Virus record (IMG/VR): IMGVR_UViG_3300039310_000050
Location: 1 to 64,000 of that record
DNA from: a virus
Direction: 5' to 3' (one strand)
Length of the DNA: 64,000 nt
Shown here piece after piece: positions 4,856 to 30,281 of the stretch. The notes below the pieces were generated by a model. The model did no database searches, was not told the DNA's origin, and was given only the letters and a program-made list of their open reading frames with translations. Every line of letters begins with the position of its first letter. Position 1 is the first letter of the stretch. The position numbers were made by a program, and so were the translations under genes.

Positions 4856-5593
4856 ATGGCATATATTTCTATTTTAGATCGTGTTCGTGAAAAACTTCAG
4901 AAAGAACCATTTTCAAATACTCAAGCTGGTTCTATAAAATGGTATAGAAATCAAATTAGAAAATTAAGTGAAAGTCCTACAGGACATTTTTATCGAGGAG
5001 ATACTTTACGTCCTCATTTATTAGCCGATCCTAATAGAAGTACGGAAAATATTTTACCTGGTTTAATGTATTTGTTTTATTATGATCCAAAATATAAAAA
5101 GGTTCTTCCATATTATGATAGATTTCCTTTAGTTTTCCCCATTGATTATAATCGAGAAGGTTTTATAGGATTAAATTTACATTATCTTGGATATAATACT
5201 CGATTAGAACTTTTCCGACAATTAGAATTAATGTCAAATAGAAATCAAAATGATCCACGGGCCCGTATTCAAATAGCATATAGAATGTTAAAAGGTTTTT
5301 CTAGATTTAAAGCTTTTAAACCTTGTTTGAAAAAATATTTATTTCAACATGTAAGATCACATTATGTAAGGATTAATTCACCTGATTGGGAAACTGCATT
5401 ATTTCTTCCAGTTGAACAATTTGTTAAACGGAGCAAAACATTTGTTTGGGCTGATTCAGAAAGAATTATTTCTGGAGAACAGAAAGGGCCGACAGGATTA
5501 CCTAAAACAACAAATATACCACATACTCCAACAGTGACAACCTCTCCGGTTCAAAAAACAGTTAATACAAATGGATTACCACATAAGATATAA
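4856..5593 (+). CDS. gp2: DNA end protector protein gp2
   Basis: YDPKYKKVLPYYDRFPLVF, GLNLHYL, KPCLKKYL, LPVEQF, VWADS. Confidence 0.92.
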   Translation: MAYISILDRVREKLQKEPFSNTQAGSIKWYRNQIRKLSESPTGHFYRGDTLRPHLLADPNRSTENILPGLMYLFYYDPKYKKVLPYYDRFPLVFPIDYNREGFIGLNLHYLGYNTRLELFRQLELMSNRNQNDPRARIQIAYRMLKGFSRFKAFKPCLKKYLFQHVRSHYVRINSPDWETALFLPVEQFVKRSKTFVWADSERIISGEQKGPTGLPKTTNIPHTPTVTTSPVQKTVNTNGLPHKI

Positions 5594-24558: not shown

Positions 24559-25497
24559 TTATTTTAATAAAACTTTAAAGCATCTAAATCCTTTATGATA
24601 ATCTTGTTTTCCTTGAGAAACACGGATCATATTACTAGATTGTAAATCATTATCTCTACAAAATTGGTTAAGATTTTTAATTTGTTTTTCTTCACCATTA
24701 GGATAAATTATTTTCCAATCTTCAGCCTGAACAACTTTTTGGATCTTACTTTGTTTTTCTTTATATTCTGGTGTATTTCTAATTTTTATAAATGTTTCTA
24801 TTCGTTTTTCTTTAGCAACAGGATCTTTCCAATGATCCGAATTTTTCTTACCAATATTTTTTTTAGTTTCTTCTGTATGAATTACACCAACATGACCCTT
24901 CAGGGCTTTACTCATTTTCTTACAATATTCCGGATCTTTATAAAGTTTATGTATTGCCAAACTATGTTTCTTTTTAGTTTCTTTGGATTGAGATTTTTGG
25001 TGCTGTTTTTCTTTGTGTGCTGGATTCTTCCACAATTTAATAGCGGCTTCAGACATTTTTTGTCTAGTTTCTTCTGATTTAAAATTCGGTTGAACAAACC
25101 AGCGAGAAAGTATATTTTTATTATAAAATTTCCTAGTTCCATCTGGAAGCAAGGCCGTTAATACATCCAATTTTATTTGAATTTCTACTTCACCAAAAGT
25201 CAAATCTCTTTTCATTGGACACATTCGGATAATTTCCCGAGTAAAATTTTCTTGCCCAAATTTTTCAATATCGGCTTTTACATCTTCAGAACTTGACCAA
25301 TATTCTTTCCAATCCGATTCAGATACTATATGTTTTCTATTTTTCTTCCCAGGAACCTTTTTAGAACGATTAGACCAAAACTGTTTTTTGCCAATATATT
25401 GACGCCCATTTAAATTACATTTGATATTATAAACAAAACCAAATATTCCTTCTGGAGGAATTGTTATCGGTTCGCCATTATAGATCCAAGGAATCAC
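24559..25497 (-). CDS. GIY-YIG endonuclease with NUMOD3-type tail
   Basis: GFVY...YIGKKQFW, ESDWKEYWSSS, SEETRQKMS, HTEETKKNI; late promoter at 25504-25511. Confidence 0.85.
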   Translation of the reverse strand: MIPWIYNGEPITIPPEGIFGFVYNIKCNLNGRQYIGKKQFWSNRSKKVPGKKNRKHIVSESDWKEYWSSSEDVKADIEKFGQENFTREIIRMCPMKRDLTFGEVEIQIKLDVLTALLPDGTRKFYNKNILSRWFVQPNFKSEETRQKMSEAAIKLWKNPAHKEKQHQKSQSKETKKKHSLAIHKLYKDPEYCKKMSKALKGHVGVIHTEETKKNIGKKNSDHWKDPVAKEKRIETFIKIRNTPEYKEKQSKIQKVVQAEDWKIIYPNGEEKQIKNLNQFCRDNDLQSSNMIRVSQGKQDYHKGFRCFKVLLK

Positions 25498-26090
25498 ATA
25501 AAATATTTATAAGTCCATATTAAATTACTTATCTGGTGGATAAGAATCAATATTCTTTCTCCAAATGCCAAGTGCCCTCTTTAGCGATTTCTTCCAATTT
25601 ATTCAATTTAATTCGGCTTTTATGAATCCAATGTTTATATTCATTTTTCTGAGATCCAGAAGGCGCGTGTTTCAAGTTACGGTTAAATTCATTAATTTTA
25701 TCCCGTGTATCTTGAATTAATTTCCGAATATCTTTATTCGTTAATTTCTTTAAAGTTTTCTTCATACCAAAATATAACCTCATCCAGATCGGCCTCTGTT
25801 GGTGGAGCCGGATCCACCGGCTCCACATAATTATTTTTTAGAAGATCCCACAAACTCATCATACTCCGCATTTTCATCTTCATCCATAACATCAGCAATA
25901 CTATCAAGTGCATTTGCAATATTATCTAAAGTTAATACTACCGAATCCAAAACACCTGTTACATAAGCTGAATTTTCTTCATCCAATCCATCAATAGGTA
26001 CTTTATTATTAAAATCAGACAAATCAGTTGAAATATCATCCAACTTTTCAATATATTTTCGAATCTTCATTTTTATATACTCCCGCAATT

Positions 26091-26119
26091 ATAATAGCAT
26101 AAAAATGTTAAATTGTCAA
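26091..26119 (-). promoter_or_regulatory. sigma70-type early promoter
   Basis: TTGACA-17-TATTAT with TG. Confidence 0.65.
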
Positions 26120-26121
26120 AT

Positions 26122-26781
26122 CTATAATTCGCATGAATTTCCTACGCAGGCAAAGTCTTTAGAATGAACAGTTTGATCATCTAATTCATATTTGGTTATT
26201 TGTGACCAATCAATATTTTTAGGCATTTTATCTAATGCTTCATTATATTGTTGTTCCGTTATTTCTTCATAGGGCGCTTGACGATATGATCCATTATCAA
26301 ATGGTAAAAATGCTACTCCACTTAATTCATCAAAATTTTTATAGACATAGGCGCCAACTTCTAACCATTCCGATTCACGAACATATACCGTTATAGATGT
26401 TTTATGTTCGCACCAATTTTTTTGATAAATCATAGCCAAACGCAATTGGTCTAAAGCACTTAAATCATTCCGTAAAATAGCAGTATCAGGAGATTTCATA
26501 GGGAATGAAAATACATCCGTTTGATCGGGATGTGTTACATCATCTTCAACTGGCACTCCAGCATTTCTCATTAATTTAGAAACTGGATCTTTTTTATCTG
26601 CGCGCGCGCGTCTAATATAAAATTGAGAATATCTTGGATGAATACCACTTGCTGAATCTACTAATTGTGAAACCGTATTATGTGATATAATTCCATTAGA
26701 TAATTGATAACAGTGAGAATTTTCAACTTCAATATCTACTGTAAAATCTTTTTCCACTTTATGTATTGAAACTATTTTCAT
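26122..26781 (-). CDS. nrdJ: split-intein C-fragment (35 aa) fused to the class II ribonucleotide reductase C-terminal part
   Basis: MKIVSI...TVDIEVENSHCY..NGIISHN|TVSQLVDSASGIHPRYS...WCEHKTSITV...YRQAPYE...CVGNSCEL. Confidence 0.93.
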   Translation of the reverse strand: MKIVSIHKVEKDFTVDIEVENSHCYQLSNGIISHNTVSQLVDSASGIHPRYSQFYIRRARADKKDPVSKLMRNAGVPVEDDVTHPDQTDVFSFPMKSPDTAILRNDLSALDQLRLAMIYQKNWCEHKTSITVYVRESEWLEVGAYVYKNFDELSGVAFLPFDNGSYRQAPYEEITEQQYNEALDKMPKNIDWSQITKYELDDQTVHSKDFACVGNSCEL

Positions 26782-27413
26782 TTTCTACCTTTTCTAAATT
26801 GAGGATTTAATTTTAAAAATTTATCAAATGATAATGATTCTTGTTCTTTTTTAGTGTATTTAAAATTATTAATTCCATTACTATACCATTTAAATCCTTT
26901 ATTTTTTGGACCACCAATTTTTCCAAATTTACTTTGATTTTTAGAATCTTTAAATACTGGTGAAGACTTTCCTCCCATTGAACATATTTCTAAATGTTTT
27001 TCTTTATCAAAATGATAATATTTATGAAATCCTAAACCCAATTCAGATTGAATTTTACCACCAACTTTACCACCCATTGATGCCCATAATTTTCTTTTAT
27101 TTTTATTTGTGGTACATATTCCAATTTTTAATTTTTTAACTTTGGCACCACCTATTTTACCACCTTCACCAGATGATATTTTATGTGCTTCAGTAAAATT
27201 ATAACCTATCATATAAAAAGAACATAAATCTTTAAAATTTCCATATCGTATATAACGAAATAGGTGTTCCAATTTATGTTCTTCTTTAGTAAATGCTACC
27301 AAATTTTCAATATCATTGGTGCCACCATCAAACGATGGTTTAATATGATGAACTTCCATTTTATTCGGAAGAATTATATTATAATAATTTTCATATATTT
27401 TTCTTGCGGTCAT
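26778..27413 (-). mobile_element. HNH homing endonuclease between the two nrdJ halves
   Basis: EVHHIKP..DGGTNDIENL...EH..EH; GGKIGG repeats; ATGA overlaps at both ends. Confidence 0.9.
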
Positions 27414-29137
27414 AATTCTATCAATTCATCATCCACAGTTAATTCATCTACTCTTTTCCAACCAGTTTTAGTTAATAATTTATGGTTTGGAGTAAATTTA
27501 TATTTTTTACCATCTATACATTCAATTTCATATAAATCATCAATACCATTAATATATAATTTAGTTATTTCTTGTTCATTATTATTATCATCAAATACAT
27601 TTATTTTTACTTTTGGTATAATCCATTTTTCTTGACAAGTTTTTATATATGATAATGAATAACCATTTTTCATAAAAATTTCTAATAAAGATAATTCACC
27701 ATATTTAGTTTTAATAATTGTATCTAATGTAGTACATCCAGAAGGTTTAACACACGTGACCGCTACTGATTGATTAATACCTAAAAATTCAGCCCATATT
27801 TTATTAGTATCAACAGCCACTTGTCGAAATTCCTGTAATACTTCACTTAACTTATAATCTTTATTTTGTCCAGAAAGAATAGCATTATCTAAAATACCAG
27901 TAAGAGAAACACCAAGTAATCTTTCTTCTTCTGTATTCTCTTTCCATTTATCTGACAAATAACGGAACTTTGTAAGTGTAGATTGTAAAGTTCCTAATAT
28001 TGTGGCATATTTTATTTTTTGTTTAATGGATTCTACCGTGTCATTAGATCGGATAACAACCTCCGATAAATTACAAAACTGTTTATTACGGAGAATAATT
28101 TCACCACACGGATTCGTGCTAAATAAAATAGGTGTTTTATCATCATTTAAAACTTTTCTTCTTCCATTTTTACCAGCATGTTTTGTTAAAGCCGCTCTAT
28201 TTAAAATACCGCGCTCACCAGAATTACTTTTGAATAATGAGGACCATTCCTCCATAAACACTCCCATTGGAGGTTTTTCTGTATAAATTGCGCTATTATT
28301 TGCCAAGCGTCTATGTGGATTTGTTTTCCACCAATCACCTGATTTACAATCGCGCATACGCATATCTTCTAAATCTGATAATGAAATTAATGCAGATCTA
28401 CGAACACCGCCACTCACAACAATTTCGGCAATTTTACATACAATATCGTGACATTCAAGAGTAGTTAATTTTCTACCAGCAGCATTCTTAAATGTGGCCA
28501 CAGTAAATCGGAAAAGTTCTTCTAATGGCCCAGGTCCACTTGCTCTACCTCCAAATATTTTGAGGCGCGCGCCCATAGGTCGTAAAAGACTTGTATCCCA
28601 TTTAGGAACTTTACCCGTCCATAATAAAGCAAGCAATTCACGATAAGCAGTTGCCCATCCAATTTTAGAATCATCAACCACAATAGTTGTATTTGTCGGA
28701 TACATTTTAGGTGCTATTGTGGGCAGTTGACTTACATATTGTTTTTCTACTGAAAGCCCACAACCGGTTCCGCACATTAAAATGAACATCATTTCATCAA
28801 ATGTATGTGGATGATCTATACCTATAAAAGCACAATTATATCCTGCGCTGTTATCTTTTTCTAATGCTTCACCTGCGGTCATTAGGGCCCGCATGGACGG
28901 CATCACTTCAAGGTTCAATACGGCCTTATGGGCCTCTTGGAATTGGATTTCAAAAGGGCTTTGTTCATTTTCTCGGCTGCTATCTACAAATTTATCTTCT
29001 AATCTCTTTCCAAAAAAATCAAAATATCGTTCTACTGTTTCTAACCAATTTTCTCTCCTTTGTAAATCATCGCGCCAACGGGCATATCTTGAAAGATGAA
29101 TATATTCCTGGTAATCTGTAGGTAGATAATTCTGCAT
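27410..29137 (-). CDS. nrdJ: class II (B12-dependent) ribonucleotide reductase N-terminal part fused to split-intein N-fragment (108 aa)
   Basis: SRYARW, MPSMRALMTAG, YNCAF, GGVRRSALISL, TNPCGEI, FCNLSEV, CVKPSG|CTTLDT...FTPNHKLLT..GW. Confidence 0.93.
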   Translation of the reverse strand: MQNYLPTDYQEYIHLSRYARWRDDLQRRENWLETVERYFDFFGKRLEDKFVDSSRENEQSPFEIQFQEAHKAVLNLEVMPSMRALMTAGEALEKDNSAGYNCAFIGIDHPHTFDEMMFILMCGTGCGLSVEKQYVSQLPTIAPKMYPTNTTIVVDDSKIGWATAYRELLALLWTGKVPKWDTSLLRPMGARLKIFGGRASGPGPLEELFRFTVATFKNAAGRKLTTLECHDIVCKIAEIVVSGGVRRSALISLSDLEDMRMRDCKSGDWWKTNPHRRLANNSAIYTEKPPMGVFMEEWSSLFKSNSGERGILNRAALTKHAGKNGRRKVLNDDKTPILFSTNPCGEIILRNKQFCNLSEVVIRSNDTVESIKQKIKYATILGTLQSTLTKFRYLSDKWKENTEEERLLGVSLTGILDNAILSGQNKDYKLSEVLQEFRQVAVDTNKIWAEFLGINQSVAVTCVKPSGCTTLDTIIKTKYGELSLLEIFMKNGYSLSYIKTCQEKWIIPKVKINVFDDNNNEQEITKLYINGIDDLYEIECIDGKKYKFTPNHKLLTKTGWKRVDELTVDDELIEL

Positions 29138-29270
29138 TATTCCTTCTATTCTAAATTTCTAATTTTTCTTGTTATTAAAAAATCTATTGCTTCTGTCCAA
29201 CTCCAAAAAATATGAAGACTCCCAGATATTAGGAGATTCCATCGATTTTCTCTTTTGAAAATTTTGGGTT

Positions 29271-30281
29271 TCAACATCGTTTCCAATCTGCTAATGTAAT
29301 ATTCGCATTTAATCCCTGATAGGTATTATTTTCTATAATTTGTTCTGGATTCCTACCAGCTAATACCATATTGTTAATATCTTTTTCTTGAATTGTATCT
29401 GGCCAGATACAAATTTTTCTGCCTTCATTAATAACTTTTTCCATTTGTTTAACTATTTCCTTTGATCTCTTTTCATTATCAAAAATAAAAACACTATCTT
29501 TAAATTCCAATTCTTTGGATGCCAAATTAGATCCTGCGGTTGCTATTGCATTTGAAAGGAACATAGAATCAAAAGGTCCTTCAACAACGTAAACACATTT
29601 ATCTAAATTCACCCTATCTAATCCATAAATTTTTGGAGCTTCTTTATCAACTTTAATAGTTATATATCGCATTCCAGTTTTATTAAATGAGCGACCTTGG
29701 AAAGCAATAAGTTTATTTTCTTTATTATAAAATGGAATAACAAGTCTTGGATCTTGTTCTTTTAATCCATATTCATTTTCTGGTTCTATTTTGTTTACTA
29801 ATTGCTTAAAATTTGGAATAAAGAATATGCTTCGCCAAAAAAATTCTGGTATTTTCCTTTTAATGAGATATTCTTTAGCAAAATGATTGGAAGGTAACTT
29901 ATCAATACAATCGTAACTATCCAGAATAGAATCAGATTCGTCATGTGGTATTTGATGAAATTCTGTAGTGGTTTTAAATTCTGAAAAATCTTCATGGTCT
30001 TTTTTTACATCCTTATACTTTTCAAATGTATATTGTTCATACAAATTTTGGTCAATTTCTTTTAAGAAGTGACCTAATGTCCAATTTTTATGACAATTAT
30101 GGCAACAAAAAAATATATCATTATTTTTTACATAAAAGTAACCACGGGCTTTAATTTTACTTTTAGCTGAATCACCACAAATAGGACAACGAAAATTATA
30201 GGTTTTTTGATTTTTACGTTTGAATCGTTCTAATTGAGGAGAAATAAATGCAACGTATTTATGGTCAATATAAAGAGACAT
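29271..30281 (-). CDS. gp61: DNA primase gp61
   Basis: NFRCPICGDS, CHNC, RLVIPF, FQGR, VVEGPFDSMFL, DNE, KDINNM. Confidence 0.95.
   Translation of the reverse strand: MSLYIDHKYVAFISPQLERFKRKNQKTYNFRCPICGDSAKSKIKARGYFYVKNNDIFFCCHNCHKNWTLGHFLKEIDQNLYEQYTFEKYKDVKKDHEDFSEFKTTTEFHQIPHDESDSILDSYDCIDKLPSNHFAKEYLIKRKIPEFFWRSIFFIPNFKQLVNKIEPENEYGLKEQDPRLVIPFYNKENKLIAFQGRSFNKTGMRYITIKVDKEAPKIYGLDRVNLDKCVYVVEGPFDSMFLSNAIATAGSNLASKELEFKDSVFIFDNEKRSKEIVKQMEKVINEGRKICIWPDTIQEKDINNMVLAGRNPEQIIENNTYQGLNANITLADWKRC

Follow-up and report, generated by a model that had tools for sequence, protein, structure and literature searches.

A fractured RTPR-type nrdJ gene with a putative naturally split class 1 intein and an intervening HNH gene in a T4-like virus

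Introduction

Can a ribonucleotide reductase (RNR) gene that is broken in two by an endonuclease gene still give rise to one enzyme? This question is raised by a locus in a stretch of 64,000 nucleotides (hereafter the window), corresponding to positions 1-64,000 of the IMG/VR record IMGVR_UViG_3300039310_000050, which is 101.6 kb long, about 56% complete and T4-like in its gene content. At 26122-29137, three consecutive open reading frames (ORFs) lie on the minus strand of the window, spanning 27410-29137 (575 aa), 26778-27413 (211 aa) and 26122-26781 (219 aa), respectively. An earlier reading of this DNA, made from the letters alone (the sequence-only reading), had described them as a nrdJ gene fractured by a naturally split intein, with an HNH gene between the halves. 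This description was borne out by profile matches, the exact junction, the conservation of the splicing residues and the modelled HINT fold of a homologue, and the locus is very probably a "fractured gene", i.e., an RTPR-type nrdJ interrupted by a class 1 intein that is naturally split, with an HNH gene between the intein halves.

Results

The two halves make up an RTPR-type reductase

The N-half ORF matches the NCBIfam RTPR profile TIGR02505 from position 175 to 519 (up to query residue 469, E 1.1e-62) and positions 518 to 722 of the profile are covered by the C-half ORF (from query residue 36, E 4.8e-25). As the first match ends at profile position 519 and the second begins at 518, the two exteins abut exactly. 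The scores of the single halves (212 and 88 bits) are each below the 340-bit cut-off of the profile, of which the halves together cover positions 175-722. The structure of the Lactobacillus leichmannii RTPR (PDB 1L1L) aligned with the N-half with an E of 7e-28, placing equivalents of Cys119, Cys408, Glu410 and Cys419; the catalytic motifs are found at residues 100 (YNCAF), 342 (NPCGE) and 355 (CNLSE). The C-half aligned with residues 549-736 of 1L1L, with CVGNSC opposite the CEGGAC of the latter. The split NrdJ retains its thiyl Cys as well as both Cys pairs, the redox pair and the C-terminal one. Judged by these matches, the host gene encodes a ribonucleotide reductase of the RTPR type (monomeric, class II, adenosylcobalamin) and is intact except for the break.

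The break falls within VKPSGTV between the Gly and the Thr, approximately at Gly551|Thr552 of the 1L1L chain, which is itself uninterrupted. No interruption at KPSG|T is present either in the intein-less nrdJ genes of cultured phages, which are 53-58% identical to that of the window. Among 120 longer database proteins, 102 have an uninterrupted KPSGT[VI]SQL; this motif is carried by all of these intein-less homologues (102/102), in the exact form KPSGTVSQL in 100 of them. The idea of the sequence-only reading that KPSG and TVSQL together restore a conserved RNR motif is thus in agreement both with the abutting exteins and with the motif found whole in the intein-less homologues and in RTPR.

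The junctions carry the residues of a class 1 intein

The junction of the N-half reads VKPSG|CTTLDT, Cys1 being residue 468 (codon 27736-27734). In the C-half the first 35 residues end with GIISHN and are followed by TVSQLVD, with the Thr+1 codon at 26676-26674. The cassette bounded by these two points comprises 1,060 bases (26677-27736), namely the coding part of the N-terminal intein half (IntN), the HNH gene and the coding part of the C-terminal intein half (IntC), and it is inserted between the Gly467 codon and the next Thr codon of the KPSGTVSQL loop. The splicing residues of class 1 are complete, with Cys1, TxxH (TPNH), the Asp and His of block F, the final His-Asn and Thr+1.

The ORFs and the sequence confirmed to the base what had been claimed for the N-half, that is a 108-aa IntN after CVKPSG|CTTLDT with TPNH as block B. 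The same holds for the 35-aa IntC ending SHN|TVSQLVD, which was matched by TIGR01443 (intein C-terminal) with a score of 19.7 against a cut-off of 15.6. Also the free-standing HNH gene with ATGA overlaps on both sides was found as described. Its product matches Pfam PF01844 with 23.3 bits (cut-off 21.4) at residues 18-40 (EVHHI...NDIENL), and the two stop/start overlaps could be read directly in the sequence, as ...GAA TTA TGA / ATG ACC at 27413-27410 and as ...AGA AAA TGA / ATG AAA at 26781-26778. The reading frame moves by one base from each of the three ORFs to the next.

Two other assignments were considered and rejected. A class 3 mechanism is contradicted by the presence of Cys1 and by the Cys that the window has in block F (SHCY), which is not conserved, the relatives having THSY. 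The best PDB match of IntN, a clostridial toxin repeat region, was attributed to chance, the score being the sum of many short insignificant matches to hairpins (...GKKY.F.PN....TGW..D).

The intein halves belong to a conserved family and fit one HINT domain

A search with IntN in 5.8 billion proteins returned 20 further clusters with 47-59% identity, all metagenomic, which together with the IntN of the window are referred to as the 21 N-half clusters. Neither Cys1 nor the block B Thr and His vary in any of the clusters (21/21), and the N-half proteins of all of them stop a few residues past WKRVDEL..D. The tail of IntN is acidic throughout (charge -1 to -4 in 21/21 clusters; net -3 in the last 20 residues of the window protein). 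To the protein clusters can be added related loci (L numbers) obtained from a motif scan of IMG/VR, several of which have the whole arrangement; the IntC end SHN|T is kept in all six that were examined (L002, L008, L012, L019, L020 and L024). The head of IntC has a charge of +4 to +5 in four relatives and of +1 in the window and in L024. Based on these comparisons, the intein of the window is a member of a family with at least 20 further metagenomic protein clusters.

One of the related loci, L012, is a contiguous allele, in which an IntN-like and an IntC-like part (48 and 61% identical to IntN and IntC, respectively) are linked by five residues. Its structure, predicted from a 23-row alignment, had a predicted local distance difference test score (pLDDT) of 88 and a predicted template modelling score (pTM) of 0.84, and confidence dropped at the five-residue link, which is the point where the intein of the window is split. 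The best PDB matches of the modelled fold are all inteins, namely Ssp DnaB, Npu DnaE (template modelling score, TM, 0.84; root mean square deviation 2.3 A), NrdJ-1 and gp41-1, with 17-25% identity. Because L012 joins both parts and is predicted to fold as an intein, IntN and IntC are taken together as one HINT domain; according to this model, the halves in the window are two parts of that domain, cut at the loop usual for nested endonucleases.

Thr+1 is fixed by the extein

The sequence-only reading had drawn attention to Thr as the +1 nucleophile at the KPSG/T site. The Thr is indeed present at the junction, and it was read in 16/16 contiguous inteins at the KPSG|T site with both junctions readable. 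It is not distinctive, however, since the same Thr is carried by 102/102 intein-less homologues and is therefore no special feature of the intein. According to a review, 12% of inteins combine Cys1 with Thr+1, and Neq Pol, a natural split intein, has Ser1/Thr+1 (PMC11766414). Seen in the alignments, Thr+1 is a residue of the extein, invariant within KPSGT; the extein dictates it, and it is not unusual for inteins.

The arrangement is found unchanged in independent DNA runs

Near-identical copies of the 3-kb stretch occur in 20 DNA runs, which come from metagenomes of peat, wetland and soil and date from 2014-2025. Contigs from four of the DNA runs, two of which were not flagged as a possible source, have 0-2 base differences to the stretch and span IntC, the HNH gene, IntN and the N-extein. 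As these contigs bridge the split arrangement unchanged, it is not an assembly artefact. No contig skipping the HNH gene or the intein was present among the contigs of the four runs, which as contigs drop rare variants. In these three kinds of metagenome the phage recurs from 2014 to 2025 with an almost unchanged sequence at 26122-29137.

The KPSG|T site is occupied in different ways in other phages

Scans with IntN of viral and of metagenome contigs gave three loci each, one of them informative. At KPSG|T we observed contiguous mini-inteins of 134-154 aa, some of which are close relatives of the split intein of the window, and full inteins of 359-401 aa, most of them with a LAGLIDADG Pfam domain. 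Split inteins were found around SegE-like GIY-YIG genes (L008 and L020), around a 356-aa ORF (L002), around HNH genes (the window and L024) and, in L019, around a spacer of 69 nt alone (5082-5150) with no nuclease gene. The 356-aa ORF of L002 could not be placed among the Vsr-like endonucleases, as it has no Pfam match and no meaningful PDB match, only PHROG 22677 (annotated with unknown function) and a weak "endonuclease" PHROG.

L008 and L019 share about 80% DNA identity and differ by the GIY-YIG gene. Since the 69-nt spacer of L019 matches the 3' end (the last codons) of the GIY-YIG gene of L008, the nuclease gene was deleted in L019; going by this alignment, the spacer is a deletion scar, the nuclease gene having been lost while the split intein stayed.

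L024 belongs to a phage with 60% guanine plus cytosine, where the site reads KPAG|TTSKL. Its IntN, HNH protein and IntC are 45, 36 and 66% identical to those of the window, and its RNR exteins about 23-31%. From these identities, the cassette of L024 resembles that of the window far more closely than the host genes resemble each other, as a mobile unit would.

Further insertions were seen in genes of this family. The RNR N-half of L024 (L024:1501-4605, minus strand) has a contiguous LAGLIDADG intein further upstream (Pfam Intein_splicing and LAGLIDADG_3), so that, with the upstream intein and the split one, the gene holds two inteins of different kinds. Three other N-halves (P0010, P0011 and P0021) are 828-867 aa long, with KPSG about 270 residues later, and contain LAGLIDADG in P0011 and NUMOD3 in P0010; they probably have a second insertion upstream of the split intein. 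Outside RNR genes, the whole length of IntN aligns at 37% identity with a segment that covers "uvsW_1 / hypothetical protein" in the cultured Salmonella phage S16 group, and the uvsW region of S16-like phages may be another fractured gene in isolated phages.

The HNH protein shares its C-terminal module with GIY-YIG proteins

Relatives of the HNH protein amount to 303 representatives at E<=1e-3, 20 of them at E<=1e-30, and many of the 303 match the C-terminal module alone. A full-length homologue (36% identity) occupies the same position in L024. The module, of about 130 residues, is common to the HNH protein of the window and the GIY-YIG proteins of L008 and L020, with 50% identity, and is presumed to bind DNA. 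As far as the alignments go, a single module with a presumed DNA-binding role carries two different catalytic domains, HNH and GIY-YIG, at the same place in the genome. A PDB search of solved structures gave no informative relative of the HNH protein beyond the HNH motif.

The C-terminal half of the HNH protein shows repeated GGK-type motifs (GGKIGG, GGKVGG, GGKSS, IGGPKNKG), and this half is met again behind different nuclease domains in many database proteins.

Layout of the locus and neighbouring gene

The features of the locus are collected in Table 1. About 620 bases downstream of nrdJ-C there is another free-standing homing endonuclease gene (24559-25497, minus strand), whose product is a SegE-like GIY-YIG protein (PF19835, E 1.3e-36); NUMOD3 is matched as well, weakly and with a score short of the Pfam cut-off. 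A scan for promoters and terminators returned sites no more frequently than in shuffled sequence.

Table 1. Features of the fractured nrdJ locus (coordinates refer to the window)
Feature	Position	Strand	Remarks
nrdJ N-extein	27737..29137	-	residues 1-467, RTPR-type, ends ...VKPSG; TIGR02505 E 1.1e-62
IntN (putative), 108 aa	27413..27736	-	Cys1 (CTTLDT, block A), FTPNH (block B), acidic tail ...WKRVDELTVDDELIEL
TGA stop of the N-half ORF	27410-27412	-	
Free-standing HNH homing-endonuclease gene, 211 aa + stop	26778..27413	-	PF01844; PHROG HNH/homing-endonuclease families
C-terminal module of the HNH protein, aa 81-210	26784..27173	-	GGK-type repeats; presumed DNA-binding
IntC (putative), 35 aa	26677..26781	-	block F (TVDIEVENSH), block G (...GIISHN); TIGR01443
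nrdJ C-extein, 184 aa + stop	26122..26676	-	starts with Thr+1 (TVSQLVD); ends with redox pair CVGNSC

Discussion

Trans-splicing and the alternatives to it

The way in which the two halves could give one enzyme would be as follows. The three ORFs would probably be co-transcribed and translationally coupled via the ATGA overlaps, and the acidic tail of IntN and IntC would associate, so that the halves fold into one HINT domain. The thioester formed at Cys1 would be attacked by Thr+1 to give a branched oxyester; Asn35 of IntC would cyclise and an O-to-N shift would leave a NrdJ of 651 aa with a native KPSG-T peptide bond. The HNH protein would have no part in splicing and would act as a homing endonuclease cutting alleles without the cassette, thereby spreading or retaining the latter. 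We hold class 1 trans-splicing, with the HNH protein as the homing endonuclease of the cassette, to be the most likely reading and attach a high probability to it. Co-transcription, trans-splicing and its rate, the target of the HNH protein and the dependence of the phage on the spliced enzyme are what we infer from the DNA.

Some results weigh against it. The matches of IntN to TIGR01445 and to Pfam Intein_splicing fall below the curated cut-offs, and the IntC head of the window is only weakly basic (+1), unlike that of four relatives. The modelled HINT fold is that of the contiguous homologue L012. The runs carrying the stretch are all DNA, with no RNA run among them. Finally, no other RNR large or small subunit was found in the 101.6-kb record; with the record only about 56% complete, a second RNR elsewhere in the genome is possible.

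The precedent for a reductase that works in pieces is Aeromonas phage Aeh1, where an RNR split by an HNH gene functions without splicing (PMC2677866). By analogy with the NrdA of Aeh1, the two NrdJ pieces could form a non-covalent complex in which the intein halves serve as docking domains and no splicing takes place. Trans-splicing itself also begins with the halves associating. Aeh1, however, has no intein, whereas in this family residues needed only for splicing (Cys1, TxxH and the terminal HN) are kept in relatives of about 50% identity, and docking domains would not need them; moreover, the loop that the break interrupts is strictly conserved (KPSGTVSQL in 100/102 homologues). We therefore consider this explanation unlikely. 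A different view of the same cassette is that a nuclease gene entered a mini-intein and destroyed it, leaving a nrdJ that is dead or decaying. Degeneration is expected under the homing-cycle model, and the nuclease gene can be deleted, as in L019, yet the three ORFs are intact and tightly coupled, the catalytic residues of the exteins are intact, the split architecture is kept in at least 21 diverged clusters and runs dated 2014-2020 show next to no difference at the locus. The record shows no other RNR over its 101.6 kb. Decay of the gene is very unlikely.

A contiguous intein would also result if the HNH region were removed or bypassed before or during translation, by a group I intron or by two programmed frameshifts, and HNH genes of T4-like phages are indeed often in group I introns, as I-TevIII in nrdB (PMC3653736). 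Against an intron stand the Rfam intron families, which gave no match even at E<=1 in 25500-29500, and the HNH ORF itself, which fills the interval and overlaps both neighbours, leaving no non-coding DNA and no room for an intron core. Read-through would take two successive frame changes of one base each, and no slippery heptamers are present at the sites; L019 is moreover split with a spacer of a mere 69 nt. The probability that we assign to this explanation is close to nil, and trans-splicing of two separately translated halves is preferred to it.

Significance of the KPSG|T site and of the intein family

Protein ligation makes wide use of natural split inteins from fractured phage genes, such as gp41-1, NrdJ-1 and IMPDH-1, which rank with the fastest known. 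With at most 25% identity to the known tools, the family described here is a reasonable candidate for an orthogonal pair with Thr at the ligation site, and orthogonality of the intein of the window to NrdJ-1, gp41-1 and Npu DnaE is plausible on the grounds of sequence divergence. It is possible, if on balance doubtful, that the family provides an efficient Cys1/Thr+1 split intein orthogonal to gp41-1, NrdJ-1, IMPDH-1 and DnaE and that KPSG|T is, at the same time, one locus with every stage of the intein/homing-endonuclease life cycle. If this were true, the gene-breaking model could be tested directly on the series at KPSG|T, which comprises the LAGLIDADG intein, the mini-intein, the split intein with an invading HNH, GIY-YIG or other nuclease gene, and the form that has lost its nuclease; the site shows all the allelic states postulated by the version of 2009. 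The HNH and GIY-YIG domains on one module at the same position represent a clean natural swap of nuclease domains between homing endonucleases. The locus is a well-supported new example which leaves the basic picture of inteins unchanged and brings no new principle; what makes it of value is that the split intein may prove useful and that one site offers a complete natural series of intein/homing-endonuclease states.

Comparison with known systems

Fractured phage genes with trans-splicing inteins and an intervening endonuclease had been called a known class by the sequence-only reading, and the layout of the window is that of the genes described by Dassa et al. (2009; PMC2677866), i.e., gp41-1, gp41-8, IMPDH-1 and NrdA-2 as well as NrdJ-1/2. 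The two have in common the same-strand order of extein-N with IntN, free-standing endonuclease gene and IntC with extein-C, a phage-type host gene of nucleotide metabolism, and the split at the usual endonuclease-insertion loop, with an IntN of about 105 aa and an IntC of about 35 aa. The polarity of an acidic IntN and a basic IntC in the family of the window is the same as in NrdJ-1 and IMPDH-1 (PMC2677866), and an allele lacking the endonuclease gene is found in both sets, gp41-7 in that of Dassa et al. and L019 here. The differences concern the endonucleases, which in the Dassa set are GIY-YIG or Vsr-like, HNH being only predicted (PMC2677866), whereas the window has HNH; in the AceL NrdHF case the endonuclease is likewise GIY-YIG or Vsr-like (PMC7891396). 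The spacers of the Dassa set are 27-51 nt long and are replaced in the window by overlaps of 4 nt.

Comparison of the insertion site with those of published split inteins, which had been proposed along with the sequence-only reading, showed that it differs from that of NrdJ-1/2. The insertion of the latter adjoins the thiyl-radical Cys, whereas in the window the corresponding NPCGE (342-346) is uninterrupted and the intein lies about 120 residues further on, at 467|468; at +1, NrdJ-1 has Ser where the window has Thr. NrdJ-1 (PDB 8UBS), gp41-1 (6QAZ) and Npu DnaE (4KL5) share class 1 chemistry and the HINT fold with the family of the window (TM 0.73-0.84 for the L012 homologue) and differ from it by an identity of 17-25% in structural alignments. 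Since the identity is this low and the match between NrdJ-1 and IntN by sequence (E 0.004) covers block B only, the intein of the window represents a family separate from these three. In the literature, with InBase outside the comparison, we found no paper on an intein at the KPSG|T site or in RTPR-type reductases; to judge from these comparisons, the layout is of a known type and the intein family is at a new site, widespread and found in no paper.

Two further systems are close to the locus in different respects. Aeromonas phage Aeh1, with nrdA and mobE (HNH), also has the RNR catalytic subunit of a T4-like phage split by a free-standing HNH gene, but it has no intein and the chains stay separate, whereas the HNH gene of the window is flanked by complete putative intein halves. 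The contiguous inteins at KPSG|T (P0173-P0196) have the same insertion point, Cys1 and Thr+1 as the window, and differ in being single polypeptides, those of 359-401 aa having a nested LAGLIDADG and no separate HNH gene.

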